DNA of 64,000 nt from a virus (taxonomy: Duplodnaviria; Caudoviricetes). The position numbers were made by a program, and so were the translations under genes. The stretch covers positions 1 to 64,000 of the IMG/VR virus record IMGVR_UViG_3300028048_000069. One strand, written 5' to 3'. Under the pieces are notes generated by a model. It made no database searches. It was given only the letters and a program-made list of their open reading frames with translations, and was not told the DNA's origin. Of the stretch, positions 2,936-53,042 are shown in pieces (positions within the stretch are counted from its first letter, which is position 1; every line of letters starts with the position of its first letter).

Positions 2936-3434
2936 TAAAAATCATTTGCCAAATATTAATTTGCGCGTATTTAGAAGAGAGAAAACAGACCTTTCCCTCA
3001 TCTATAATAGTAGCGAATTAGCAACTTTATTTGGTAATAACCTAGTTAAACCAGAAGTATATATAAATGGTAATAAACTAGTGGCAATTGTCCAAAAAGC
3101 ACAGGCTAAAGATGCTACTTCTACGGACATCTGCATATTTATTGATTATGCTGAAAATAATCTAAATAGTGAAGATAGATATAATGTGGAATTAAGATTT
3201 CCATTAAATCAATTAGATTTTATTAAGTATAATATTATTGTGGAAGGCGCGGGTATTATACCTTCCCTTAAAGATAATAAACAGATGTTCTCCCAAAATT
3301 TCTGTTATGATACTAAAAAGAAGAGATGGGTAAAACCTTCTTCTATTGAAGATGAAAATGGAGATAATAGAATTTTGGTAAGTGACCCAGAAGTAACGAA
3401 TTTACTAAGGGAAATACTTAAAAAATTGAAATAA
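2928..3434 (+). CDS. Hypothetical protein
   Basis: 168-aa ORF overlapping the previous stop. Confidence 0.6.
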   Translation: MPNKNHLPNINLRVFRREKTDLSLIYNSSELATLFGNNLVKPEVYINGNKLVAIVQKAQAKDATSTDICIFIDYAENNLNSEDRYNVELRFPLNQLDFIKYNIIVEGAGIIPSLKDNKQMFSQNFCYDTKKKRWVKPSSIEDENGDNRILVSDPEVTNLLREILKKLK

Positions 3435-4217: not shown

Positions 4218-6964
4218 AATTTTTTAAAGTAAAAAAAGCAGATATTGGTGAAAAATATAGAGGTAATAAAAATTTTCCCTTAAATATTCCATTAGATGAT
4301 TTCAATAAAGTAAAAGAAAATGCAAAATTAGTTTTTGATCCAAGAACAAAAAAAGAAGAAGTATGGTCATATATAGGAAATAATGGAAATTTAGACCTTT
4401 TTGAATTATTATCTTATGAAAATGTAGATAATAAACCTTGGGTAAAACTTGTTGTAAATAATTTATCTAATTCATATTATAATAAAGACCTTTATTATGA
4501 TGTTGGTGCATCATATGATATATCAAATTTAGAACTTAAAAACAATATGAAAAAAGAATCAGCAATTCAACAACCTAATAAACCTAAACCAACAACCATG
4601 TTACCAGACAATATGGAATGGGCTTGGGATCCAGAGGCTGCCGATTGGGTAGCTGTATTAAAAGATAATACAAATACTACTCCACCATTATATGATCCTA
4701 ATAATCAAAATGTAGTAAATCAAACTACAAATTATATGAGTACAGTAAAATCTGCTTCCAATAAAAACATAGATAGTATTATTGAAGATTATAAAGAAAA
4801 AGTATTGGTAGATGTTAGTGCTGTTTCTACAAAAGAAGATGATTTTTATAAAGAAAAAGAAATAGAAGTAGAAGAAGAAATTAAAGAGGCACAAAAATAT
4901 GTATCTTCTATTTTAGATAATAAAAATGCCAAAAGTTATTTAGAAAGACAAGTGCAAAAAACAAAAGAAGTTTATGGTGAAAATTCTAATTACTATAACT
5001 ATGCCAAATTTGTATTAGATTTATATAACGAAATGTCAAGAAACTCTGATATAAGAAATATGAAATCTGCTAGTAAAAAAGTTAAATCAGAAAAAAGTAT
5101 GATGGACCTTGCACAAAACATTATCTATGATGTGGTTTTAATTCACAAAGCAAAATCTATGGATGAAAGACCAGAGTGGGATGGCACTTTTGCTATACTT
5201 ACTTTGAACCCAGAAAAGACAGATATTGTTGATATAAAATATATACCACAATCTTCGTTGCCTTCATATACACCAAATGATAATGAATATGGACTTGTAA
5301 GAACAAGAGATACTGGCTTTGATGATACAGATTATCAGTTACAGCCATTAGAAATGATAATTAACCAAAGAAAATCAGATAGTTTTGCTAAAGATGATAA
5401 AAATGCTGTTGAAAGTGGCTATAAAAAACAATCATCTTGCTTATCTAACTTTTTAGATGGTCCAAGATATAGCAAAGAAATTAAAATTGAAGCAGGTTTA
5501 ATTAAAAATGGTTTAGTTAAATATGCTGGATTTGATTTTAATCGCGGTACAAAATATGCTATTACTGATAAAGGTTTAGAAGTATTAAGAAAAGCCTCTG
5601 AAAAAGAACATAATGAAGCCTTAAATGAAAGAGAAAAATTGGCTTATATGTTCGGTTTTAATACTGATAAAGAAACCACTCTAGATACTACTGGTAAGAT
5701 TATTAAATCAGACAAAAAATTTCACATACATCTTCCTGGAAGTTTTTACACGCAAGAAATTTATGGTGAAACCATAGATGATGCTTTAGAAAACTATGGG
5801 TACAAAAAAGATGAAATTATGGAATGGTATGATGACGAAGGTAATGGCGAATATATAGGTAATCTTGTTGAATGTGATTTGTGCGGTGAAAAATACGAAG
5901 CAGATGAATTAGTTTCAACTGATATGGGAAATATATGTTTCAAATGCAAAAAAGGCATTGAATCCAAAGAAGGGCCATTTCAAAAAAGGTTTTCTATCAC
6001 AGAAGCAGACGGAACTCCATTAGGTAAAGTAACCGCAAGCAGTGAATTAGATGCTAAAGTTAAATTTGGTATTGAACATCCAGAATATGCAGATAGCCAA
6101 AGTATTAGTGCCAAAGTAATATGTGCATCAGAAACAGAGTATATGTCTGTTCAAAATATGAAAACATTTTTGAAACAGCAAGGTGCAAAAGAAATTTCGT
6201 TCGGTGCTTTTACACAAGATGTACCACATAGTGATAGTGATTTAGTTAAAGTTATAGAATCTCACGGTACAAAGAAAATACATTTGACATACGACCACTA
6301 TAAAGTATTTGTTTATACTAATGGTGCAAGAATGATAGAAGATTTGGCTAAATATAATGGAAATTGGAAAGATAGATACTTTATTTTTACCAAAGTTTCT
6401 AATAACAAAAACATTGATGCCAAATATGAAGAAACAACCGAGTCTCATGAACCTTATATTAATCCCTCAGAAACTCCTAACGATCACATTATTTTAGAAA
6501 ATCATGATGGTTGGGTAAATACTGCTAGTTTTGAAGATGATGTCAGAAAACAATTTCAACAACCTCATCAAAAATTACCTAATAGTGATAGAGATTTAGC
6601 TTTATTAGAAAAACAAATTCTTGAAATTACAGATGAAGATACAAGAGATACTGTAAGAAAAATATTTGATGAATTTCAATTTTCTGATAAAGAAGCTGCA
6701 GAACATAGACCTTATACTGAAGAAGAAAAAAGATTATTACCTCTATTTAGACTTCTTAATCAGCATATAGCTAAAAAAGAGATTCAAATAGTTGAAGATC
6801 CTCAAAAAGATGGTAATATTGTAGCTACAGGTCAAGCAGAAGTAATTAATGATCTTGAACACGAAGTAAAAGATCTAGGATTTCATTGTGAGCCTATCGC
6901 AGAAATTACCGATGAAGATTATATTGGATATGATATTTATTCTTTAAGAATCTTTACTAAATAA
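4214..6964 (+). CDS. Large modular protein with MKF..KA leader and internal K-[VI]-x-[SA] linkers (putative polyprotein)
   Basis: MKFFKVKKA start; internal SASKKVKSE, KIIKSD, KVTASS, KVICASE; one Zn ribbon (CDLC...CFKC). Confidence 0.6.
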   Translation: MKFFKVKKADIGEKYRGNKNFPLNIPLDDFNKVKENAKLVFDPRTKKEEVWSYIGNNGNLDLFELLSYENVDNKPWVKLVVNNLSNSYYNKDLYYDVGASYDISNLELKNNMKKESAIQQPNKPKPTTMLPDNMEWAWDPEAADWVAVLKDNTNTTPPLYDPNNQNVVNQTTNYMSTVKSASNKNIDSIIEDYKEKVLVDVSAVSTKEDDFYKEKEIEVEEEIKEAQKYVSSILDNKNAKSYLERQVQKTKEVYGENSNYYNYAKFVLDLYNEMSRNSDIRNMKSASKKVKSEKSMMDLAQNIIYDVVLIHKAKSMDERPEWDGTFAILTLNPEKTDIVDIKYIPQSSLPSYTPNDNEYGLVRTRDTGFDDTDYQLQPLEMIINQRKSDSFAKDDKNAVESGYKKQSSCLSNFLDGPRYSKEIKIEAGLIKNGLVKYAGFDFNRGTKYAITDKGLEVLRKASEKEHNEALNEREKLAYMFGFNTDKETTLDTTGKIIKSDKKFHIHLPGSFYTQEIYGETIDDALENYGYKKDEIMEWYDDEGNGEYIGNLVECDLCGEKYEADELVSTDMGNICFKCKKGIESKEGPFQKRFSITEADGTPLGKVTASSELDAKVKFGIEHPEYADSQSISAKVICASETEYMSVQNMKTFLKQQGAKEISFGAFTQDVPHSDSDLVKVIESHGTKKIHLTYDHYKVFVYTNGARMIEDLAKYNGNWKDRYFIFTKVSNNKNIDAKYEETTESHEPYINPSETPNDHIILENHDGWVNTASFEDDVRKQFQQPHQKLPNSDRDLALLEKQILEITDEDTRDTVRKIFDEFQFSDKEAAEHRPYTEEEKRLLPLFRLLNQHIAKKEIQIVEDPQKDGNIVATGQAEVINDLEHEVKDLGFHCEPIAEITDEDYIGYDIYSLRIFTK

Positions 6965-6988: not shown

Positions 6989-7414
6989 ATGCCAGCTTTT
7001 TCAAAGAAATCATTAGGAATGTTACAACAATGTCATCCAGATATTCAAAAGGTGATGACAGAAGCCATTAAGATTATAGATTTTTCTGTAACCGAAGGTG
7101 CTCGTACAAAAGAAAAACAAATTGAGTATTTTAAAACTGGAAAATCTAAAACAATGAATAGTAAACATTTACCTAAATATTGTAATGAAATTGGTAAAGA
7201 ATGCTCATTTGCAATAGATGTTGTTCCATATCCCGTAAATTATAATGATCGTGAAAGATTTTGTTTATTAGCTGGTATTGTTTTAGGTATGGCAAAGGTA
7301 TTAAAAGATCAAGGAAAAATTAAATCTACAATACGATGGGGCGGAGATTTTTCAATGAACAATATCACAAAGGATGAAAAATTTTCTGATATGCCACACT
7401 TTGAGATATTATGA
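6989..7414 (+). CDS. Endolysin, M15-family L-Ala-D-Glu peptidase (T5 Lys-like)
   Basis: EGARTKEKQ, SKTMNSKH, AIDVVP, RWGGDF and DMPHFE motifs. Confidence 0.9.
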   Translation: MPAFSKKSLGMLQQCHPDIQKVMTEAIKIIDFSVTEGARTKEKQIEYFKTGKSKTMNSKHLPKYCNEIGKECSFAIDVVPYPVNYNDRERFCLLAGIVLGMAKVLKDQGKIKSTIRWGGDFSMNNITKDEKFSDMPHFEIL

Positions 7415-7791
7415 AATTTTATAAACTTATTAAAAGTGCTTCTTATATAGGGTATCATGGAAGTCAAAATCCAAAATTAGTATTGACTAATAAACCTCTT
7501 TATTTAACAAGTAATTATGATGAGGCTAAAGATTGGGCGGATGGTTATGGATTTAATTATGACTTAATGGATTCAGATATTCCAACTGTTTATAAAATAC
7601 AAATGACTTTTAATAACCCGAAACAAATAACAACCGAAGAAGAATACGAAGAATTTATGGATATAACCTCAATACCGAATATTATCCCACAATTGACTAA
7701 AGATGGATATGATGGTGTTATTTATAATGAAATCGGTTACTATTTAGTTTTTAATGCACAAAAGCAGTGTAAAATACTAGGGGTAGAATAA
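7411..7791 (+). CDS. ADP-ribosyltransferase-like (ART-PolyVal-like) protein with MKF..KS leader
   Basis: YHGS...LYLTS..EA..WA...NNP...GYDGVIY...YLVF pattern; leader MKFYKLIKS. Confidence 0.55.
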   Translation: MKFYKLIKSASYIGYHGSQNPKLVLTNKPLYLTSNYDEAKDWADGYGFNYDLMDSDIPTVYKIQMTFNNPKQITTEEEYEEFMDITSIPNIIPQLTKDGYDGVIYNEIGYYLVFNAQKQCKILGVE

Positions 7792-8486: not shown

Positions 8487-11400
8487 ATGGATCCAGTTAC
8501 AAATAAATTATTACAAGGTACACCTTATGCAGGTATGGGTGGAACACAAGAAAGAAATGCCTTAATTGGCGTTATCAGAAATTTAATTTCAGAAGATAAA
8601 TATACAGTAGATTACATTTTAAATTATGCACAATCTGTAGGTTATCAAAGACAAATGGCTGAAGAAGTTTTCAAAGAACTTACAGGTTTAAGTCCAAAAC
8701 TTATTGTAAATAATAACGAATATTACAATATGCCTTCTTATGTACCTAATATGTGTATTGCTTGGGGTACATCTAAATCAAATAAAGAAAAAGCCTTTTA
8801 CATTGTGCCTTTTGAATATGGTTATGCAGTAATGGAAAAAGACGAAGTAAATGCGCCTATTCCTACAGTTATTTCTGCGACTATTCCAGAAGCATTTGAA
8901 GAACTTAAAAAAGTAGCAAAGGGTATCCAAACATTAGATAAAATTATTACCAAAAAATTGTTAGAAGCAGAAGATGTGCAAACAGATGCTCATACAGTAC
9001 ATCAAGTAAATCTTCCTTATGCTGCCTCTCCTTTACAAATTCTTAAAAAGAACTTTAAGGATAAAGTATTAAGTGTTTCAGAGTTCGAAAGACAAGCATC
9101 TAAATTGTTAGCATCAGAAGAAATTACTGTTGACGAGGCCGAAGATTTAATGGCTTGGAAACAAGATTTAATTGATGAAGATGAAACCTATGGTAATGAT
9201 GTTCTTGAATTGGATGAACAATGGAAACCATTAGATGCGGATGTAGATGAAGATTTAGAAAGTTTCGATTATACCTATAGCCTTTTAGTAAATGGTAATA
9301 TCGACCTTTACAAAGAAAGATTAAATAAAATGTCCAAAGCCGAACTTATGGATTATATTTCTTGGGCAGAAGAAATGGGTATCGGTCGTGAAGAACTTAA
9401 ATTACACTATATTACTGCATCCAAACAGGTCAAATCTAGCAATAATTTTACAAAACAGCCAGGTTATCCGCTAGTGTTTGTTAGTGAAAATGATGAAGAA
9501 GTATTATCTCACGAAGAATTTGTTGATATGTGGAATGAAGATAATCCAGATAACCCTATCGGCGAATGGGATGAACAAGATAATGCCTACTTTGATTGGT
9601 TAGACCAACATTACAATGTAATGGAAGATGAAATGGAAGAATATCTTCGTAAAGCAACTTTACCAAAAGGAATTACAATTAAGATAAAACCAGGTGCTAC
9701 GAAAGGCGGTCAATTATGGGTAGAAGGCGACACATCCGATAAAAGTGCAGTTGCTAAAGTTATGATTGATGCTGCCAATGCCTGTGGTTGGGAAGTTGAA
9801 AATGACCAAAAAACAGCATCTAAAAAAGTAAAATCTGAACTGTCTGCTGATGTAAAATCCGAAATGGAACAAGAAGCACAAAACATCATTAAAAAATTCA
9901 AACCATATGTAATTAAATGGGAAGCGGATGATAATGGTGGTTCTGTGTTAATCGGAGATAAAAATTCTGATTTCCAAGCATGGGTAGATGTATGGATAAG
10001 CGGTAATGATGTAGATTGTGATTGGAATCAATATATTACCCATGTAAATGACCCAAAAGAATATCGAGATTTACAAGTCCGTAACGATACAGAAACAGTA
10101 TTTGATTTAGCTACTAGTGAAGCTATTTATTGTTTAGAGCAAAATAATATTATAGCTCAAGATGAAACTGCTCGTTGGTTTATGGTTAGAAATAATAAGA
10201 AAAATGCTTCTAAAAAAGTAATTTCAGAAAGTGTATCTGTAAAAGACCTTGAAGCAAAAGCCAAACACTACGAGGACTTACTTAAAGAAGAAGGTTACAA
10301 AGATATGAAAGTAACTCCTTACTTTGCTTATGGCTCTTATGGTTTTTACTTTGATTGGACTAGAGATGATGGAAAATCTGGCCAAAAGTTCACTGGTTTA
10401 GGCACTAAAAAAGAAACTTTAAATAATCTAAAATTGGTTTATTATGAACTTGTCAATAGAATTGATTGGTTTATGAAAAGAAAATCTGCCAATTCTAATT
10501 TGAATGATTCAATTAAAGAATGGTACACAAAAACCTATAAAACAGATGAATGTGGCGCGGATATTAACCCAAATACTACTTTTATGGAAGTATTATCTGA
10601 TGCAGAAAATGCCTATGATTTAATTGGTGTGACCGATTCAGTAGTTCGTGAAAGAGTATTTGATGAACTATCTAAAAGAACAAATATTCCCTATGAAAAA
10701 ATCTTTAATATGTGGATGGGAAAACAAGCTTCTAAAAAAGTTAAATCTAATAATAAAGATATCGTTGTAATTGATACTGGTAATGGTTATTTACAAGTAT
10801 TTGAAAATGACGATACCTACGATTATGGCGGTCATCAAGTAGGCGAACAACTTTATGAATTTAGTATCAATGATGAAGATAGAAACAATGGAAAAGCGAC
10901 CCTTGATGTTGATGATTTATTAAATAGTAAGTTTTATGGAATAGTCTTTGAGGATTTTGACAAATTAGAGTGGTTTGTTCAACATATTAAAGATTCAAAT
11001 ACACAACAAGAAATTAAAAACTTACTAAATAAAGAAGCCAAAGGTGTTTATTCTTCTAAAAAAGTAACTGCTGAAAATATGACTTTAGATGATATTGAAG
11101 CAGAAGATAATAAAGATCAAGTTCAAGAAGAAATTGAAAAGATTGATGAAACACCTACTGAAGATATTTTCTCTGAAACAACTCCAGAACAATACTTTGA
11201 TAAAGCACTACAAGAAGATAAGGTTGATACTATCAATGATGTAGTAAGCAAATGTATTGATAAATTCAGCGAAAAATTTAAAGACTTTGATAAATACCAA
11301 GTTAAGATTTTATCTTACAATACCAAAGTACTCGAAGATGATAAACCAGTACAAGAAGAAATGGTAGAAGATAAAGAACTTAATGCTAATGCTATTTTAC

Positions 11401-44458: not shown

Positions 44459-45082
44459 ATGAAATTTATAAGAGTATTAAAATCTAGCCTACCAAACGAA
44501 AATTCATTGGGCGAACTTATTGCCAATAACGAGCAAACTTTACAAAATTTTTGGAATTGGTTTAATGGTAGTAAGGTTGTTGATGAACAAGGTAGACCAT
44601 TAGTTGTTTATCATGGAACCATGTCAGATTTTAATGAATTTAATACTAATTATGTTTTTTCAACAAATGATATAGAAACAGCAAAAAGATATGGACATAC
44701 ATTATCATTATATTTAAATATAAAAAATCCTTATATTATAAATGCCGATGGAGATATATGGAGTGAAGTTCAAATTCCAAAAGAAATTAAAGAAAATTTT
44801 TCATATCATATAGAGAATATTCAATATGAGATATACAGTGATGCTCAATTTGAAGAAGATGAAGAATATTATAGCAATGTATTACCTATAAGAGAAATTG
44901 TAGATATAATAAGTACAAATAGAGATATTATACAATGCGATGGAATTATAGTTAACGATATTAAAGAAGATGAAGGTATTGTAGACGATTATATAGTGTT
45001 TAACTCAAATCAGATAAAATCCATTAAAAATAATAATGCTTATAAATCTGAAGATAACAGTATATATGGTAGCAAGTTATGA
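44459..45082 (+). CDS. ART-PolyVal-like ADP-ribosyltransferase domain protein with MKF..KS leader
   Basis: SKVVDEQGRPLVVYHGT...FS....AKRYG...YLNIKNP...DGII...YIVFNSNQIKS; leader MKFIRVLKS. Confidence 0.7.
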   Translation: MKFIRVLKSSLPNENSLGELIANNEQTLQNFWNWFNGSKVVDEQGRPLVVYHGTMSDFNEFNTNYVFSTNDIETAKRYGHTLSLYLNIKNPYIINADGDIWSEVQIPKEIKENFSYHIENIQYEIYSDAQFEEDEEYYSNVLPIREIVDIISTNRDIIQCDGIIVNDIKEDEGIVDDYIVFNSNQIKSIKNNNAYKSEDNSIYGSKL

Positions 45083-46002
45083 TTCTTACATTTCCAGATA
45101 AGATTTTGGTTGAGAATTTATGTCATGGACCTAAAGGAAAATATAAGATTTCTTGGTCTGCATCTCCTCTTGCAACTTCTTATAATATTTATAGATCCAG
45201 AACTCCTTATGGTTGTGCAGACCTGATTAATAATACAACTGAATTATATTATATAGATACAGATTTTGAAATTATTGATGGGACAGAATGTTATTATAGA
45301 ATATCATCTGTTATGGCAGTTCCTGATAAAGATGGAAATATGATAGTTTCGGAATCAGAATTATCTAGATTTCAAGGCGCGCCTAATACTACAGAATATA
45401 TGGAGACAACTGCTGGTACTTGGACAGACTCTAATAATACTAGATGGGATCCACATGATAATAAATATCCGAATGGCGAATCATCTTATATAGGTACTAA
45501 TTATCTTCCATTAAATGTTTTAAGACGATATCAGTTTAATAAAATAGTTCGTGATGAGTTGTGGTTATTACAAGATCGTGGTGAACCAGTTTATCTTATT
45601 AAAAAGAAAAGAGTTAATTATGAAACAGATACCGAAGATGATGATAGAAGAGTTGGAAGAAAAAATAATGTTCAATATTTCTGTCCTATTATCATTTGGT
45701 CATCTATTGCAAGTCCAGGACAAACACATCTAGTAACTTATAGAGGGGCAGCATTAGAGAAAAATACAAGATGCTGGACTATCTATACACCTAAATTGGA
45801 TGATGGGGATATTATTATTACCAAAGATAATAAGCGTTGGGAAATTCAAAATGTTACTTATCAAAGAAGTTGGCGCGGTTCTGTAACATGGCAAGCATAT
45901 GATTTGAAAGCATTACCTGTAACTGACCCAGTTTATTCTCATCCACAATTAAAATGTTTAGATGGTTCTAAGTTATATCAAAAGAAACATTTCTGGCAGT
46001 AA
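45079..46002 (+). CDS. Putative neck/head-closure protein with N-terminal Fn3-like domain
   Basis: ISWSA..ATSYNIYRS...YYRISSV (Fn3-like); C-terminal WT...P.L..GD.I....RW.I..V. Confidence 0.5.
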   Translation: MILTFPDKILVENLCHGPKGKYKISWSASPLATSYNIYRSRTPYGCADLINNTTELYYIDTDFEIIDGTECYYRISSVMAVPDKDGNMIVSESELSRFQGAPNTTEYMETTAGTWTDSNNTRWDPHDNKYPNGESSYIGTNYLPLNVLRRYQFNKIVRDELWLLQDRGEPVYLIKKKRVNYETDTEDDDRRVGRKNNVQYFCPIIIWSSIASPGQTHLVTYRGAALEKNTRCWTIYTPKLDDGDIIITKDNKRWEIQNVTYQRSWRGSVTWQAYDLKALPVTDPVYSHPQLKCLDGSKLYQKKHFWQ

Positions 46003-46020
46003 AAATTGTTGGAGGGTTAA

Positions 46021-47544
46021 ATGGGCAAAATTACATCTAAACAAGATGTTATTCGCGAATATAAATCGTTGTTAAACGATTTTCTATCAACAACAGGTTC
46101 AAATAAAATCACCAGAAAATATTATAGGGAACATTCAAAATTTCCTTATTTATATGAAAAATTTTTTGGCAGTTTTGATGAATTAAAGAAAACCTTTTCA
46201 ATAGACCTACCTGAAAGAAAAATAATCAAAAAACGAGTAGTAATTTCTTCCATACTTCCTAATACAGAATTAGATAAAGATTTTATTCAAGCAATGGAAA
46301 ACTATTGTTTGAATAATAATGCTCAATTATTATTAGTTCCTATAAAGGGTGTTCGTGGAGAAACAACTTTTGATGAAAAAATAATGGTTAGATATGGCGG
46401 TTATTTTACAACAGAAGCAACCTTTAATGAAAATCTTAAATTAGTAAATACAGGTATAACTGCAAATAATAAAAATCCTTTAGTAAGTATAAAAGAGTTA
46501 GGCCATAAAGAATATTCTACAATTGTAGCATCCACTAAACAATGTATGGAGATGATACCTTCCATAAATAAAGGTAAAACTCATTTAATTTATTTAACAG
46601 GCACTTGTTCTAAACCTATTTACAATAAGAATATAACTGGTACAATAAATGCAAATAACAATAAAGTAGGCGGTTTAGTAGTAGAGATAGAAAGTGATAG
46701 AATATTTTACATAAGAAATATTGAATGGATAAATGGATACTTTGTAGATTTAAATAAAGCCTATTATAAAGACCATATAGAAAATATACAAGCAGAAGCC
46801 ATTGTAGCAGGGGATTTGCATTTAAGTGGCGACGAAGATGATAAAGCATTAGACTTATTAGATAAGGAAATGCGCCTACTTAAAGCAAAAAGGCTCGTAA
46901 TTCACGATTTTTGTAGCCATAATACAATTAATCATCACGAACAAGATAATTGGATTAAAATGGCAAAATTGACAAATAAATTCCATAGTTTACAAGATGA
47001 GCATAAATATACCGCAGAAAGGTTTAACAAATTTGCTAAAGATTTAAAAAATGTTGAATTTATAGTTGTAAAAAGTAATCACGATAGATGGTTGCATAAG
47101 TATTTAGGAAATAGAAGTTTATGGATTAAAGATAATTGTAATGCTTTTTATGCTCATACCTTATGTGGATATGCTCTACAAGGTATGGATCCTTTTGAGG
47201 CCACTATGAGAACATTTTTAGATAAAAAATTAAATGTTAAATTTCTTATGGATGGGCAAACTTATAGAATAGCCGATACAGAACTATCTTTACATGGCGA
47301 TATAGGAAATAATGGGGGACCTGCAACATTAAGAAGTATAGAATTAAGTGCTGGAAAATGTATTATAGGGCATAGTCATCAGCCTAGAATGGGTTTTTAT
47401 GGAATACAAGTAGGAACAAATACAAAGGTCGATTTAGGTTATAATATTGGTGGTAGCAGTTGGCATAATGGTAATGCCAGTTTATATAAAGATGGGCATA
47501 AACAATTGCTTTTGGGTGTAAATTATAAGATTTCAATAAAATAA
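46021..47544 (+). CDS. Large calcineurin-like metallophosphoesterase
   Basis: GDLH, HD, SNHD, HGD and GHSH motifs. Confidence 0.75.
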   Translation: MGKITSKQDVIREYKSLLNDFLSTTGSNKITRKYYREHSKFPYLYEKFFGSFDELKKTFSIDLPERKIIKKRVVISSILPNTELDKDFIQAMENYCLNNNAQLLLVPIKGVRGETTFDEKIMVRYGGYFTTEATFNENLKLVNTGITANNKNPLVSIKELGHKEYSTIVASTKQCMEMIPSINKGKTHLIYLTGTCSKPIYNKNITGTINANNNKVGGLVVEIESDRIFYIRNIEWINGYFVDLNKAYYKDHIENIQAEAIVAGDLHLSGDEDDKALDLLDKEMRLLKAKRLVIHDFCSHNTINHHEQDNWIKMAKLTNKFHSLQDEHKYTAERFNKFAKDLKNVEFIVVKSNHDRWLHKYLGNRSLWIKDNCNAFYAHTLCGYALQGMDPFEATMRTFLDKKLNVKFLMDGQTYRIADTELSLHGDIGNNGGPATLRSIELSAGKCIIGHSHQPRMGFYGIQVGTNTKVDLGYNIGGSSWHNGNASLYKDGHKQLLLGVNYKISIK

Positions 47545-47547
47545 TTG

Positions 47548-47576
47548 TTGACAAATCATTTATAATTTTGTAGTAT
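47548..47576 (+). promoter_or_regulatory. sigma70-like promoter
   Basis: TTGACA, 17-nt spacer, TAGTAT. Confidence 0.6.
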
Positions 47577-47598
47577 ATAATTTAGAGGTACTATAAAT

Positions 47599-47928
47599 AT
47601 GTACATTGATAATATTAAAAAATTGCACGACCAATTAAAAGAACTGATATTTGTATGTGATGATATAGAAACAGCAGATGCAGATGGTCAAGGGTATGAT
47701 TTAGATAATCTCATATCTATTATTAATAAATGGATAAATTCATCAATATGGAATATGAAAAGTGATGAATTTAGAATGCATTTTGGAGAATGGGAAGATA
47801 AGGATTTAAGTGATGTATTTTGGCCTTATGCAGATACAGTAATAGAGATGAAAGATAAATTGCGGAAAGATTATAATAAGTTAGTAAGAATAGATTATAG
47901 ATTGAAGGAAGAATTAAAAGTCAAATAA
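47599..47928 (+). CDS. Hypothetical protein
   Basis: 109-aa ORF with GAGG RBS and its own promoter. Confidence 0.6.
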   Translation: MYIDNIKKLHDQLKELIFVCDDIETADADGQGYDLDNLISIINKWINSSIWNMKSDEFRMHFGEWEDKDLSDVFWPYADTVIEMKDKLRKDYNKLVRIDYRLKEELKVK

Positions 47929-47962
47929 AAATTAGTATAATATGTATATATAGGAGAACAAG

Positions 47963-48385
47963 ATGACAGAAAAAATCGAAGTTTCGTTGACTTTTAATGA
48001 TTTTGCTAAAAATCACAAGTCAGCGATTGAACTAAAACAACTAGATGCTAAAAATTATAAGGCATTATTAACTGTTAAAGCGGTAGAAGACCAAACTAAA
48101 GATATTGGTTTTTCTGATGCTTGGAAAAAAGAATTAGCAGATAAAATTGCTGAATTAAAACCATTAGCAGAAGAAGAATTAAAATCAGCAAGCGAAAATA
48201 TTAATACTTATTTATTCAATTTGGTAAAAGAAGTTATTGCTTATCATAGAGCAGTAGTAGAAATGCCAAAGGATGAAAAGATTAAAGAATTATCAAATAC
48301 AATTCGTTCTATTATTGCCGCAGGTGGCGGTCAATTGGAAGCAGAATTTGTATTTAATTTAGTTAAAGTGTTGTACATTAAATAA
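47963..48385 (+). CDS. Hypothetical protein
   Basis: 140-aa ORF with AGGAG RBS; TTAGTATAATAT at 47932. Confidence 0.65.
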   Translation: MTEKIEVSLTFNDFAKNHKSAIELKQLDAKNYKALLTVKAVEDQTKDIGFSDAWKKELADKIAELKPLAEEELKSASENINTYLFNLVKEVIAYHRAVVEMPKDEKIKELSNTIRSIIAAGGGQLEAEFVFNLVKVLYIK

Positions 48386-48416
48386 GTATAATATAATTGA
48401 TATTTGATAATATGAT

Positions 48417-48489
48417 TGCGGAGAAGACAGCCAGTGCGGTCGGGAGTCTCATAAACTCTTCTAGATTGGTGCAACTCCAATCTCCGCTA
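48417..48489 (+). tRNA. tRNA-Met(CAT), possibly initiator type
   Basis: Cloverleaf; anticodon loop CTCATAA; 1:72 mismatch; T-loop TGCAACT. Confidence 0.75.
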
Positions 48490-48496
48490 TAATTAT

Positions 48497-49205
48497 AAGC
48501 AGATATATGTCGGAGGCAGAAGTGTATATCACAATATAGATTAATTACCTATTATTGTAAAATGCTTGGGAAACGCAGGTCGGGAATAGTGAACTTCGCG
48601 AATACATTGGCCGATAATACCGACAGCCCACGATTTAGGTGTAATAACCTAATAAAAAGGACATAAGGAATGGTAGTGCTCTTATGTGTGCCAATGGAAT
48701 GGAGTGTGAATGCCTACTTACGCTTTAGGTAACTATAGTAAGTCCTAAAGAAGTGGTTCCAAGGGTACGGGAACTGAAAACTAGACCCATTAGTGTAGTT
48801 TCGGCTACCTTAAACAAACCGAATAACGCTTGGCTTTAAAATCTGACAATGGATGGAACGACTCCAATTAAAATAAAGTTCCTGCCAAGTTTGGATATAA
48901 GAGTATTGTAGCAATCCTTTAGATAATTTTCTTCTAAAGCAAAAAACTATAAGAAATTATATCTTAAATTACTAGAAAGGTAATACAGCAAGTGATGGTT
49001 TGTTGGCTTGTGAGGACAAGTTATTAACATAGTATCCTATTAGGTAGAGTTCATCACTACCGAGATAGGAGAGTTTAGATGACTAAACCTTAAACCGATG
49101 TCAGGAATGAAAAGTGTACTGACTTCCTCCTAGTAAGTAGTGATATTATATAAATGCTGTAAATATAGCGACTTGTGGCTAGTGATTACTATTTATATAA
49201 TGTTT
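48497..49205 (+). ncRNA. Large ornate structured ncRNA (GOLLD/ROOL-like class, family unconfirmed)
   Basis: ORF-free ~700 nt between tRNAs with more than 15 complementary stems, including long-range and pseudoknot pairings. Confidence 0.7.
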
Positions 49206-49346
49206 ATTGACAACCTACTCGGGCTTAACTATATACGCGAGGACGCGAGAATAGACCGCCAAAACAGAGTTATAAGAGATACTAGTTAATTCTTATACAA
49301 GTTTTACCACTTTACTTGAGGAGCCATAAAGTGGATGATATTTTAT

Positions 49347-49417
49347 TCCCTTGTGGTGAAACAGTATCACGATCGGCTGTTAACCGATTATTCTGGGGGC
49401 AGAACCCAGCGAGGGAG
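49347..49417 (+). tRNA. tRNA-Asn(GTT)
   Basis: ATCGG-CTGTTAA-CCGAT arm; TCCCTTG/CGAGGGA acceptor; atypical T-loop. Confidence 0.75.
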
Positions 49418-49429
49418 TTCACTTTAATT

Positions 49430-49789
49430 ATGTTTTTTGATAGACTTAAAAATTGGTTATTTAAATATAACATAGAAACAGATGCTTATTCAGTTGGTGA
49501 GAAGATAAAAATATATGTGAGTTATATGTGTGGTAAAAACCATAATGAGTTTGGTGCTCGCGTGTGTAAATCAGATAAGTATAATCACTATAAAGACAGT
49601 ATTTGTTTTAAAGATGAAGAAGATGTTTTGAATTGGGTATGTAACCATAAACCTAGTTTTATAAGTCTTATATGTAATATTGAAGACCATAAAGCATCGG
49701 ATTTTTTTGGTATATTTGATAAACTACCCCAATATGTAAATAGAATAAAAGAATCATATTGGGAGAATGGTTTTAAGATATTTGATTAG
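49430..49789 (+). CDS. Hypothetical protein (start revised to ATG 49430)
   Basis: The upstream part of the track ORF is tRNA-Asn. Confidence 0.55.
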   Translation: MFFDRLKNWLFKYNIETDAYSVGEKIKIYVSYMCGKNHNEFGARVCKSDKYNHYKDSICFKDEEDVLNWVCNHKPSFISLICNIEDHKASDFFGIFDKLPQYVNRIKESYWENGFKIFD

Positions 49790-49795
49790 ATTTAA

Positions 49796-49869
49796 GCGGG
49801 TATAGTTCAGTTGGTTAGAACGCTGCCCTGTCAAGGCAGAGGTCGTCGGTTCGAGTCCGATTGCCCGCG
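49796..49869 (+). tRNA. tRNA-Asp(GTC)
   Basis: CTGCC-CTGTCAA-GGCAG arm; GGTTCGAGTCC. Confidence 0.9.
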
Positions 49870-49879
49870 AATTTTATTT

Positions 49880-50086
49880 ATGAAATATTTAGCATTATTT
49901 ATTTGTATATTTTTGCCCTTAATATCATATTCTAAAGTGACACTTAAAGCAACTGGATATGTAGTTGTTAGAATAGTTAGTAATGAACAACTTATAAATT
50001 CTGATACATTGGTTGAGAATAAACAAATAGGTAATGAATTAGTTTATAGTTATATAAAAGATAATACTATAAATTATGTATTTTAG
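49880..50086 (+). CDS. Small secreted/membrane protein (start revised to ATG 49880)
   Basis: MKYLALFICIFLPLISYS is signal-peptide-like. Confidence 0.5.
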   Translation: MKYLALFICIFLPLISYSKVTLKATGYVVVRIVSNEQLINSDTLVENKQIGNELVYSYIKDNTINYVF

Positions 50087-50091
50087 ATTTC

Positions 50092-50165
50092 GCGCTGATA
50101 GCTCAATTGGTTAGAGCATCCGACTCATAATCGGCAGGTTCAAGGTTCAAGTCCTTGTCGGCGCA
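50092..50165 (+). tRNA. tRNA(CAT), elongator Met or Ile2
   Basis: CCGA-CTCATAA-TCGG arm resembles bacterial Ile2; GGTTCAAGTCC. Confidence 0.85.
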
Positions 50166-50193
50166 GAAAATTAGTATAATATTATTCATAAGA

Positions 50194-50405
50194 GACTTCA
50201 AGGACCTGTTTCCTTTGTGCGGTGGTTTGCTACTACCACTGAAGTCGTAAAGTAGCACTCCTTTTGATAATTTTTATTGAGTTAGGACACACCTCGGACT
50301 CAATAAAAGTGGAAATGGGTGATGTAGAGGCCAAGGCTGTTCTACACTTCCATCTATTTTGAGGGATACTGGTACTCCCAATACCACAAAAAACCAGTAT
50401 TTTAT
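50194..50405 (+). ncRNA. Structured RNA / leader upstream of arginine decarboxylase
   Basis: Three-way junction with pseudoknot plus three hairpins; promoter motif at 50171. Confidence 0.45.
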
Positions 50406-50423
50406 TTATTGGAGATAATAACA

Positions 50424-50975
50424 ATGTACGAAGCATATGTACCTAAAGAAATATTTCTTACAAAAGGTATAGGTAGGCATAAAGAGAAATTAGCAAGTTT
50501 TGAAGAGGCATTAAGGGATGCTAAAATAGCAAGTTATAATATTGTTCCAGTCTCAAGTATTTTTCCACCACATTGTAAAATTATCTCAAAAGAAAAAGGT
50601 GTAAAGTTATTAAAACCAGGTCAAATTTTACATTGTGTAATTAGTAGAAATACTTGCAATGAAGCACGCAGATTAATATCTGCATCAGTAGGTGTAGCAA
50701 TTCCAAAAGACCCTAATCAACATGGTTATTTATCGGAACATCATAGTTTTGGGGAAACAGAAAAACAAAGTGGAGATTATGCAGAAGATTTAGCAGCATT
50801 AATGTTATCTACTACTATTGGAATTGACTTTGATAATGATACTACTTGGGATCAAAAAGAACAGATTTGGAAAATGAGTGGTAAGATTGTAAAAACAACA
50901 AATATTACTCAATCAGCAATTTGCGCTGATGATGTATGGACAACAGTAGTGGCAGCGGCAGTATTTGCTAGTTAG
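50424..50975 (+). CDS. pdaD: Pyruvoyl-dependent arginine decarboxylase
   Basis: SFEEALRDA.I..YNIVPVSSIFPP (Ser-Ser autocleavage site), GYLSEHH and WTTVVAAAVF; ATG 50424 with GGAG RBS. Confidence 0.9.
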   Translation: MYEAYVPKEIFLTKGIGRHKEKLASFEEALRDAKIASYNIVPVSSIFPPHCKIISKEKGVKLLKPGQILHCVISRNTCNEARRLISASVGVAIPKDPNQHGYLSEHHSFGETEKQSGDYAEDLAALMLSTTIGIDFDNDTTWDQKEQIWKMSGKIVKTTNITQSAICADDVWTTVVAAAVFAS

Positions 50976-50990
50976 TCATTTAGATTTTAT
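50976..50990 (+). promoter_or_regulatory. Putative late promoter motif before the tRNA cluster
   Basis: TCATTTAGATTTTAT. Confidence 0.55.
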
Positions 50991-51008
50991 TGTTATTTGA
51001 AAATTTAT

Positions 51009-51092
51009 GGCCAGATGGCGGAATTGGTATACGCGACAGACTTAAAATCTGTTGGTTGCAAAATCTTGAGGGTTCGAGTCCCTCTCTGGCTA
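51009..51092 (+). tRNA. tRNA-Leu(TAA)
   Basis: ACAGA-CTTAAAA-TCTGT arm; long variable arm. Confidence 0.9.
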
Positions 51093-51100
51093 TTTAAAAT

Positions 51101-51172
51101 GCCTTCTTCGTCTATCAGTTAGGACATCAGATTTTCAATCTGAAGAGAGGAGTGCGACTCTCCTAGAAGGTA
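51101..51172 (+). tRNA. tRNA-Glu(TTC)
   Basis: TCAGA-TTTTCAA-TCTGA arm; T-loop TGCGACT. Confidence 0.85.
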
Positions 51173-51176
51173 ATTT

Positions 51177-51248
51177 GCCCTTATAGCTCAATGGATAGAG
51201 CACCCGCCTTCTAAGCGGATGATATAGGTTCGATTCCCATTAAGGGTA
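51177..51248 (+). tRNA. tRNA-Arg(TCT)
   Basis: CCGC-CTTCTAA-GCGG arm; GGTTCGATTCC. Confidence 0.85.
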
Positions 51249-51258
51249 ATAATTTAAT

Positions 51259-51343
51259 GCTCAGTATGTTCCAATGGTGGGACAGCGGACTGTAAATCCG
51301 CCGCACTCGTGCATGGTAGGTTCGATCCCTACACTGAGCACCA
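51259..51343 (+). tRNA. tRNA-Tyr(GTA)
   Basis: GCGGA-CTGTAAA-TCCGC arm; long variable arm; encoded CCA. Confidence 0.9.
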
Positions 51344-51454
51344 TTTTAATAACCACACGAACGATAGGGTAATGCCTAGTTGATATTTTGGTGTTTAAGT
51401 GAATTGCTTAACAGAGAAGGGCAACTCTGGGTATAAATGCCCAATATATTTTAT

Positions 51455-51531
51455 CTACGTGTAGGATAGATGGTTATTCCGCGACACTTGGGCTGTCGAG
51501 ATCGCAGGTTCGAATCCTGCCACGTAGACCA
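51455..51531 (+). tRNA. tRNA-Pro(TGG)
   Basis: CGACA-CTTGGGC-TGTCG arm; encoded CCA. Confidence 0.9.
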
Positions 51532-51535
51532 TTTT

Positions 51536-51624
51536 GGAAAGGTGGCAGAGTGATTTATTGCACCGCTCTTGAAAAGCGGCAACGGAGATAACTTCGTTCG
51601 TGGGTTTAAATCCCACCCTTTCCG
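51536..51624 (+). tRNA. tRNA-Ser(TGA)
   Basis: CCGCT-CTTGAAA-AGCGG arm; long variable arm; T-loop TTTAAAT. Confidence 0.85.
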
Positions 51625-51638
51625 TTTTATTTATATAG

Positions 51639-52493
51639 ATGATAACTAAAGCAATAATAAACTATGGAATGGGCGATGCACTTAATGCTAGAACATTCCT
51701 ATTAAATTATTGTAAGCAAAAGAAATTGCCTACAAGTTCAATATCTATATATACTTTAAAATATTGGTGGATGTTCGAAGGATTAGGATTTAGAAGAAGT
51801 CTTAATAAAGATAGGTTTTTTAAATTGGTACCTTATAGAAATTTTGGAAAATATGATCTTCCAAAAATTTATAATGATAAGAAATTGGATTTATGTATCG
51901 CACATAATGCAGGCATAGATTTTAGTTTTGATTATATAGAATTTCTTCCAAAATATGAAGAACCTAATATAGATTTACCAGAAAAATTTATTACTTTTAA
52001 TACTGGTTATGGGGAATTATCAGGAAAACCACACGATTTAGGTTATGTTTGTACAAAATCCTGGCCTGTCGAATATTGGCAAAAATTAGTAGATTTATTA
52101 AAGATTCCTTGTGTACAAATAGGGGCTGGAAAAAGTTGTAGTATAATAAATAATACAGCCTTAAATTTAGTAGATAAATTAAATATTAAGCAAAGTGCGG
52201 AAGTAATGAGAAAATCTTTGTTTCATATAGATATAGAGGGCGGTTTACCTATATTAAATCAGCATTTAGGCGGAAAATCAGTAGTATTATTTGGACCTAC
52301 TGCTATAGAACAGCAAGGAAGAAGTTTTAATTTAAATTTAAGAGCAAATACTTGTACTCCTTGTTATGAGTGGGGAACAAACGATAAAAGTTTAGCAATG
52401 CTTAAAAAAGATTTACCTTGCAATGCTCATTGTATGAAGGATTTAAAACCAGAATATGTAGTAGATGAAATCTATAAGAACAAATGGTTATGA
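51639..52493 (+). CDS. Glycosyltransferase family 9 (heptosyltransferase-like)
   Basis: GMGDAL, KSWPVEYW, IEGG...LGGKSVVLFGPT and CM..LKPE.V. Confidence 0.8.
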   Translation: MITKAIINYGMGDALNARTFLLNYCKQKKLPTSSISIYTLKYWWMFEGLGFRRSLNKDRFFKLVPYRNFGKYDLPKIYNDKKLDLCIAHNAGIDFSFDYIEFLPKYEEPNIDLPEKFITFNTGYGELSGKPHDLGYVCTKSWPVEYWQKLVDLLKIPCVQIGAGKSCSIINNTALNLVDKLNIKQSAEVMRKSLFHIDIEGGLPILNQHLGGKSVVLFGPTAIEQQGRSFNLNLRANTCTPCYEWGTNDKSLAMLKKDLPCNAHCMKDLKPEYVVDEIYKNKWL

Positions 52494-52951
52494 ATAAAAT
52501 TAAAAAATTAGGCGATATTTTAACAGTAGTTTTACCAATAAGTATAATTCCGATAATTTTATGGTTAAATAATTGGAAATCACTTATTGTTTTTGCAATT
52601 ATTTATGGGTTAGGTAATTTAATTGTACAAGTATTAAAGGGCATTTTTGACGAACCTAGACCTAGAGAAACAGTTGGCGACCATGTTATTTATGTACATG
52701 GATATAGTCATAATGATGGGGAGAGTTTATGTTCTGGCCACGCTATGAGTGCTTGTCTACCTGCTTATTTTAGTTTATTCTTTATTAAGCCATTTTGGGT
52801 GTTTATACCATTTTTATTATTGGCTTGGCTATGTGGTTGGACAAGGATAAAAGTAAAAGCACATTGGTTTTTAGATGTGTTTCTATCAAATTTAATAGCA
52901 TTTAACTGTTGTTTATTAGTGGCCTATATTTATTTTAAATTATTAGTATAA
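52484..52951 (+). CDS. PAP2-family membrane phosphatase
   Basis: K-x6-RP, SGH and R-x5-H-x3-D motifs; hydrophobic helices. Confidence 0.85.
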   Translation: MVMNKIKKLGDILTVVLPISIIPIILWLNNWKSLIVFAIIYGLGNLIVQVLKGIFDEPRPRETVGDHVIYVHGYSHNDGESLCSGHAMSACLPAYFSLFFIKPFWVFIPFLLLAWLCGWTRIKVKAHWFLDVFLSNLIAFNCCLLVAYIYFKLLV

Positions 52952-52969
52952 TATATATAAATATTTGTT

Positions 52970-53042
52970 GCCGAAGTAGCTCAATTGGCAGAGCACTCGC
53001 TTTGTAAGCGAATGGTTGAAGGTTCGATTCCTTTCTTCGGCT
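52970..53042 (+). tRNA. tRNA-Thr(TGT)
   Basis: TCGC-TTTGTAA-GCGA arm; GGTTCGATTCC. Confidence 0.9.

Follow-up and report, generated by a model that had tools for sequence, protein, structure and literature searches.

The window analysed here covers 64 kb at the start of an uncultured virus genome of 136,046 bp that carries direct terminal repeats, has a G+C content of 30% and is represented in public runs from cattle, sheep and goat gut metagenomes of the rumen type. An RNA locus lies at the head of its tRNA array, nine tRNAs of which are called at 49796-53042. Upstream of the RNA, a 507-aa protein (46021-47544) is a distant relative of T5 A1-like metallophosphatases (27-32% identity) with kin in many large phages, and a 140-aa protein has 57 relatives, many of them on contigs of 40-167 kb; the small flanking proteins received no name from Pfam or PHROGs. 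No close cultured phage was found, and BLAST against 50,697 phage records returned no match to the region, to its conserved core or to the copy in the phage L023 described below.

A preliminary description had placed one ornate RNA of about 700 nt at 48497-49205. A structured, gene-free stretch does occupy this interval, but its true limits are 48491, directly 3' of a tRNA-like element, and about 49334-49346, directly 5' of a tRNA-Asn. Every stem then listed was recovered at or within 1-2 nt of its coordinates, and the characterization of the stretch as non-coding, structured, flanked by tRNAs and borne by a phage was upheld on all four counts. Under translation table 11, no ORF of at least 50 aa exists within 48490-49300, as had been claimed, nor does the stretch hold one when TGA is read as W; reading TAG as Q opens two ORFs only, of 51 and 64 aa, each through a single TAG. 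The G+C content of the stretch (0.35-0.41) exceeds that of its flanks (about 0.26-0.29). Minimum free energy z-scores are modest and similar for both strands (-2.8 and -3.3), and since the wrong strand also folds about three standard deviations below shuffled sequences, folding energy by itself is no proof of a structured RNA. It is covariation that raises the observation above chance, with compensatory changes found in D1, D2, the unit formed by core and domain H, and the 3' block (Table 1). In core plus H and in the 3' block, positions that pair as G-U in one sequence pair as A-U or G-C in another when read on the + strand, which identifies + as the RNA strand because such G-U pairs would be non-pairs on the opposite one. 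This covariation rests on three or four relatives, two of them close, and several compensatory changes common to two of these, L002 and L007, may be single events.

The search for relatives yielded four loci from a protein-anchored metagenome scan and three loci and one locus from viral scans, and four relatives proved informative. The first (L002/L005) is a 13.5-kb viral contig whose neighbouring genes are 82-87% identical to those of the window; it runs from the tRNA(CAU) element and D1-D2, through a middle part that is longer than the window's and differs from it, to the core, H and the 3' block, and it is without 48957-49209. The second (L007), a 5.3-kb rumen contig, is without tRNA(CAU) and D1-D2 and presents, in order, another hairpin-rich 5' part of 290 nt, the core, an extra hairpin, H and domain E. 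Its alternative 5' part (4640-4935 of that contig) consists of perfect hairpins in series plus one long-range helix and has no match in the window's genome. The third, an RNA variant from sheep rumen (X20), continues the L007 type, keeping 48978-49113 and rejoining the window's form at 49212. The fourth (L023) is a complete, unrelated 49-kb phage of 40% G+C that carries D1-D2 and, genome-wide, no core. There D1-D2 sits 85 nt 3' of an amber-suppressor tRNA(CUA) (9453-9527) and is followed by a U-run, a new promoter and a 194-aa ORF (9803-10387) that we take to be possibly thyX-like. Beyond this ORF, at 10390-10827, we noted a gene-free, G+C-rich stretch of about 440 nt with no Rfam match, which may be another structured RNA.

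The phage group is rare in the collections that were searched. The locus is absent from the syntenic site of a relative of 71% identity (G001) and, by BLAST and the D2 covariance model R1, from the rest of that 86-kb record (64% complete); the phage's own genome holds neither a second copy nor the relatives' alternative modules. Among viral contigs, exact-pattern searches with core, E and D2 motifs led to no carrier past L005 and L023, and prokaryote genome contigs, scanned twice, yielded either no match or chance matches in coding DNA. Four unrelated high-G+C contigs raised by a 17-mer scan were discarded as chance matches. Across 302 genomes from the two families in which chance loci had turned up (Prevotellaceae and that of a Mobilitalea MAG), the D2 covariance model returned weak matches only; the two that were examined sit in coding-looking DNA, and a tRNA lies near none.

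Table 1. Features of the RNA locus and its flanks, in window coordinates
Feature	Position	Strand	Evidence
Promoter-like 10-mer, extended -10 type	48385..48394	+	13 exact copies in window vs 1.1 expected
tRNA-like cloverleaf, anticodon CAU, unusual D and T loops	48418..48490	+	stems covary with L002
D1: closing helix, hairpin with invariant 17-nt loop (48508-48524), second variable hairpin	48497..48567	+	covariation
D2: outer helix 48567-70/48627-30, conserved internal loop, inner helix 48579-83/48620-24	48567..48631	+	covariation
Variable part: hairpins 48635/48647 and 48661/48681; H-type pseudoknot candidate 48716/48738 crossing 48724/48744	48632..48755	+	stems present
Conserved core	48756..48890	+	86-89% identity to L002 and L007
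Core hairpin	48756-60/48770-74	+	compensatory changes
Core pseudoknot: hairpin loop with downstream strand	48763-66/48785-88	+	pairing changed at two positions in both L002 and L007
Core second hairpin	48795-98/48805-08	+	
Core closing helix	48828-34/48884-90	+	compensatory changes
Domain H: outer helix 48894-900/48957-63, middle helix 48906-11/48947-52, hairpin 48917-23/48933-39	48894..48963	+	
Optional domain E, 166 nt, closed by 48970-75/49130-35	48970..49135	+	closing helix doubly changed in L007/X20 form
Optional A+T-rich 11-bp hairpin	49145..49201	+	perfect inverted repeat
3' block: three hairpins	49212..49334	+	78% identity to L002
tRNA-Asn (GUU), 3' boundary	49347..49417	+	Rfam tRNA match, 44.7 bits

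The promoter-like 10-mer recurs in the window at 3226, 13470(-), 27516(-), 27571, 29748, 31418, 39889, 47934, 48385, 50173, 52945, 53141 and 62767, a count reached in 0 of 100 shuffles, and it also stands ahead of the locus in L002 and L007, that is, in all carriers of the phage group. It is probably the phage's own promoter signal, and the copy at 48385 is likely the start of a tRNA/RNA transcription unit. Co-transcription from this point, as previously proposed, agrees with the over-represented motif upstream and with one RNA contig that spans tRNAs and RNA, although contigs of this kind cannot prove a single transcript.

The first element of this unit had been taken for a tRNA-Met. A conserved cloverleaf with the anticodon CAU is present, and its acceptor, anticodon and T stems covary with the L002 counterpart (6517-6591 of that contig), which places the element under selection; the name itself is less secure, as ARAGORN does not call it and the Rfam tRNA model (RF00005) gives no match even at E<=10. 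Its acceptor stem has 6-7 bp, the D loop is without the usual GG, and the T loop carries G at the expected U55. The best Rfam match is to the tymovirus tRNA-like structure (Tymo_tRNA-like, RF00233; 31.1 bits against a gathering score of 40), with D- and T-loop sequences that align to the tymovirus consensus. Unlike that structure, the phage element is a complete cloverleaf, lacks a 3' pseudoknotted acceptor and lies in a phage tRNA operon; the resemblance probably reflects a shared type of elbow, not homology. At the other boundary, the tRNA-Asn of the window has an odd T loop and is missed by ARAGORN, which does call the L002 counterpart (7409-7483, with G at T-loop position 55); L002 has a further tRNA-model match at 7493-7563 that ARAGORN does not list.

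Immediately 3' of the CAU element lies the 135-nt D1-D2 motif. In D1, a three-way unit, all nine counted pairs of the closing helix and first hairpin are doubly changed and still paired among the window, L002 and L023, a result equalled by 0 of 500 shuffles, and the 17-nt loop is identical in the three. D2 is 100% paired, with five of nine pairs doubly changed, and its helices surround strictly conserved unpaired tracts; the covariance model R1 built on it scores 97, 94.5 and 82.3 bits on the window, L005 and L023 and picked out no further copy there. A pairing proposed earlier for 48605/48690 crosses the covarying D2 helix; it retains five of seven base pairs in L002, and its partner is missing from L023. 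Two features of the exposed loops drew our attention. The D2 loop includes a self-complementary 8-mer (48595-48602), with words of 8, 12 and 6 nt in the three carriers that are only weakly beyond chance (shuffle fractions 0.08, 0.005 and 0.30). The invariant D1 loop holds a Shine-Dalgarno-like pentamer with a GUG five bases on, from which a reading frame runs for 5 codons in the window and L002 and 27 codons in L023.

In three of three carriers, D1-D2 follows a special tRNA, be it the non-canonical CAU element or the amber-suppressor CUA tRNA. This constancy is what one would expect if the locus were a cis-acting trailer and leader of its flanking tRNAs, with D1-D2, for example, controlling the maturation, stability or timing of the unusual tRNA upstream, and not a free RNA with a function of its own. 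We consider such a role for the whole locus very unlikely: some 700 nt of conserved, covarying and pseudoknotted RNA far exceeds the needs of known tRNA spacers, the core of L007 stands without an upstream tRNA, and abundance above the neighbouring genes, described below, would be unusual for a discarded spacer.

Downstream of D2, the variable part has counterparts in L002 and L007 that are unrelated in sequence and likewise hairpin-rich; in that of L002, at about 6920-6935, we observed the 16S 3'-end sequence displayed in a hairpin loop. The core and H that follow are present together in all three carriers of the core and form a conserved unit (48756-48963). Its 37 pairs are 97% paired, and nine are doubly changed, compared with 2.9 in shuffles (0/500) and 0-1 when the partners are slid. 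The core carries an invariant 36-nt tract. The inner helices of H covary, and its outer helix consists of three unrelated sequences in the three carriers that are self-complementary in each. We also noted that the same small arrangement, a hairpin, a 7-nt word and a 4-nt word, occurs twice, in the core (48795-48823) and in E (49073-49099), which suggests an internal duplication.

Domain E holds the pseudoknot candidate of the preliminary description, both arms of which are present (48991/49052 crossing 49035/49065), and hairpins at 49073/49083 and 49100/49119; these internal candidate helices are nearly invariant between carriers. The A+T-rich hairpin is absent from L002 and from the sheep-rumen variant X20, in which 49114-49211 is swapped for 30 letters. 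In the 3' block, three doubly changed pairs fall in the first and last hairpins. The last of these (49307-14/49327-34) has a Shine-Dalgarno-like loop, an invariant self-complementary 6-mer occupies a hairpin loop at 49281-86, and the 3' edge of E bears an anti-Shine-Dalgarno-like pentamer (49126-49130). Shine-Dalgarno-like words occur in loops of both the 3' block and E; the enrichment of such words is mild, in a stretch that is also G+C-richer. Together with the self-complementary loops they would fit ribosome binding or self-association, a suggestion that is weak and not beyond chance.

E is missing in L002, yet is 94% identical in L007 though the neighbouring protein gene is only 70% identical. 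Conservation so far above that of a neighbouring gene, as after recent transfer, and patchy presence among close relatives might be taken as signs of a decayed mobile element, either a group I or II intron remnant, which the preliminary description had named as an alternative, or another selfish RNA. The Intron_gpI model, the group II models and RF01998, a group II intron domain model, give no match, however, both flanking tRNAs are whole with no split exons, and the stretch encodes neither a reverse transcriptase nor a homing endonuclease. Small protein genes that escaped recognition fare no better, as conserved ORFs are lacking, indel lengths do not follow multiples of three and base changes keep pairing, not codons. 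We assign decayed elements and hidden genes, taken together, a very low probability.

What the comparison does establish is that relatives gain, lose or replace domains of the RNA locus. The earlier notion of a single ornate RNA of about 700 nt holds as regards structured RNA and must be qualified as regards a single unit, given the separable D1-D2, the optional parts and a search for long-range covarying helices joining the domains that turned up nothing convincing. The stretch is probably a string of locally closed domains, and not clearly one rigid 700-nt RNA.

The locus is abundant in RNA libraries, where the preliminary description had left room for there being no transcript. Six metatranscriptome runs hold the stretch, four of which, from four studies, were compared over 45000-53000. 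In run X1, a 2255-nt contig (47542-49796), which includes three small ORFs too, has a depth of 682, compared with 6-17 for the exact-match contigs of this phage to either side. In run X5, a contig at 48636-49323 has a depth of 49.7, compared with 2.3 at 48479-48629 and 2.5 at 47991-48194. The excess over neighbouring phage genes is about 40-fold in X1 and 20-fold in X5, and an excess of this order within one RNA library is as expected of an abundant stable RNA. RNA contigs of the window's own form contain no splice-type joints. As assembled contigs, these data show neither ends, strand nor a single transcript. Contigs from X5 and X8, which belong to different studies, both end at 49323/49325; the depth steps at 48630-48636 and at 49323 coincide with module borders and could for that reason be strain mosaics and not traces of processing. 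Uncovered parts of the RNA runs and the low shares in DNA runs carry no weight in these comparisons. Separately, over 50417-50974, the region of an arginine-decarboxylase-like gene, contigs of X5 and X8 reach depths of 188-252 with 26-50 differences per piece; they represent a diverged version of that gene, highly expressed in the same rumen samples. We are highly confident that the stretch encodes a genuine, expressed, structured non-coding RNA.

Whether its domains belong together is a finer question. The 20-fold fall in X5 depth lies exactly at the border between D2 and the variable part, L023 has D1-D2 by itself, flanked by a tRNA and the U-run before the next promoter, L007 has a core without D1-D2, E and the A+T-rich hairpin are optional, and each domain has its own closing helix with no covarying helix found between domains. 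All of this could mean that D1-D2, the variable hairpins, core plus H, E and the 3' block are an array of separate small genes for structured RNAs, interspersed with spacers, and that each is cut out on its own and has its own role or none. We regard such an array as possible and rather unlikely, because core and H occur together in all three carriers, E, closed by a helix of its own, is placed after H and ahead of the 3' block in the manner of the peripheral domains of large RNAs, the X5 contig runs unbroken and at one depth from 48636 to 49323, and the Rfam scan detects no tRNA-like or ribozyme cleavage signal between the domains.

On balance, we think it probable that 48491-49346 is a non-coding, highly expressed and modular structured-RNA locus within a phage tRNA operon, released by tRNA processing and acting as a free RNA particle. 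From the arrangement of the locus we infer a route by which this could come about, the likely ends of the product and its possible division into two molecules. Transcription would begin at the 48385 motif and take in the tRNA(CAU)-like element, then the structured RNA, then tRNA-Asn. Host enzymes that form tRNA 3' and 5' ends (RNase Z or E, and RNase P, respectively) would then cut at the tRNA borders and release a stable RNA about 850 nt long at most, with a possible second cut near 48632. Such a cut would separate the 135-nt D1-D2, which is always 3' of a tRNA and also stands alone, from a core-containing part of roughly 700 nt into which E and the A+T-rich hairpin would have been inserted; the variable part precedes the core, and recombination between related phages would swap these pieces. 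The product would work as a free RNA particle, as proposed for GOLLD and ROOL, and not as an mRNA, intron or leader, and its invariant exposed loops and self-complementary loop words suggest binding to a partner and possibly to itself.

A bolder version of this proposal carries the loop sequences further. The core RNA (about 48632-49334) would belong to a new class of ornate phage RNA that assembles itself into an RNA-only multimer through its exposed self-complementary and invariant loops. D1-D2 would be a new tRNA-linked motif that docks the small ribosomal subunit through the Shine-Dalgarno-like pentamer and GUG of the D1 loop, and the two together would serve rumen phages as a device acting on translation or tRNA supply during takeover. 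We consider this combination improbable.

The preliminary description had offered two identities for the RNA, membership of the GOLLD or ROOL families or a new class, of which the second is the better. Rfam scans at the gathering score and at E<=10 gave tRNAs and sub-threshold noise only, and no intron, RNase P, tmRNA or ribozyme model matched at E<=10. The GOLLD model (RF02032, which covers the conserved 3' domain; gathering score 150) had no match at its gathering score, none at E<=10 with relaxed filters across 48200-49800, and none in the whole 136-kb genome. ROOL (RF03087; gathering score 99.1 bits) had no match in the region scans at E<=10 and none in a whole-genome scan, a scan in which the control genomes gave none either, so that its sensitivity is undemonstrated. 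Neither model matched L005 or L007 at E<=1. Could a divergent GOLLD or ROOL have slipped past these models? The rumen is ROOL's habitat, the setting in a phage beside tRNAs is shared with both, and the variable 5' part ahead of a conserved part, downstream of a CAU tRNA, recalls GOLLD in particular. Set against the silence of the models on 1.6 kb of the window, on two relatives and on the whole genome (the ROOL controls being silent too), we judge a missed member of either family to be exceedingly unlikely.

Few known natural RNAs are as elaborate as GOLLD and ROOL, which were recently shown to form RNA-only cages and still have no function. The locus reported here adds a further class, unrelated to them in sequence, that comes from the habitat of ROOL and is plentiful in rumen RNA. 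Nature supplies variants that keep or lack E, that keep or lack D1-D2 and that differ in the 5' part; these amount to ready-made deletion and swap mutants that could help to show which parts large tRNA-adjacent RNAs need. D1-D2, found behind special tRNAs in two unrelated phages, is at 135 nt small enough for direct biochemical and structural work.

A comparison can also be drawn with the small stable RNAs of phage tRNA clusters, such as RNAC and RNAD of phage T4, which are made together with tRNAs and measure only about 120-140 nt. Like them, the present RNA is a non-coding RNA among phage tRNA genes, with a shared promoter motif and an RNA contig spanning tRNAs and RNA. It is several times larger than RNAC and RNAD, which are described as of yet unknown function (PMC9697503), and is modular; the likeness drawn here is one of context. 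GOLLD is a large, pseudoknot-rich RNA of phages and prophages that lies beside tRNA genes and has a conserved part after a variable 5' part in which a tRNA may be found, with one studied member downstream of a Met tRNA (bioRxiv 10.1101/2024.12.08.627333). The phage tRNA context, the conserved core and the 5' parts replaced in relatives are all reminiscent of it, a likeness of context alone that does not establish homology; the present RNA is a string of locally closed domains and has no sequence or structure match to the GOLLD model at any threshold tried, and the only hint here of anything like the 14-mer RNA cage into which GOLLD self-assembles is the self-complementary loop sequences. ROOL, first found in cow rumen, is about 580 nt long, phage-associated and often beside tRNAs, very abundant where measured, and of unknown function (PMC5737381). 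The RNA described here shares its rumen habitat and tRNA-adjacent phage context and differs in its serial domains, for which we found no equivalent global fold or long-range helices; its pseudoknots comprise the covarying one of the core and three or four candidates. In habitat, context, size, pseudoknots, abundance and variable 5' part it is like GOLLD and ROOL, and it is a member of no described family.
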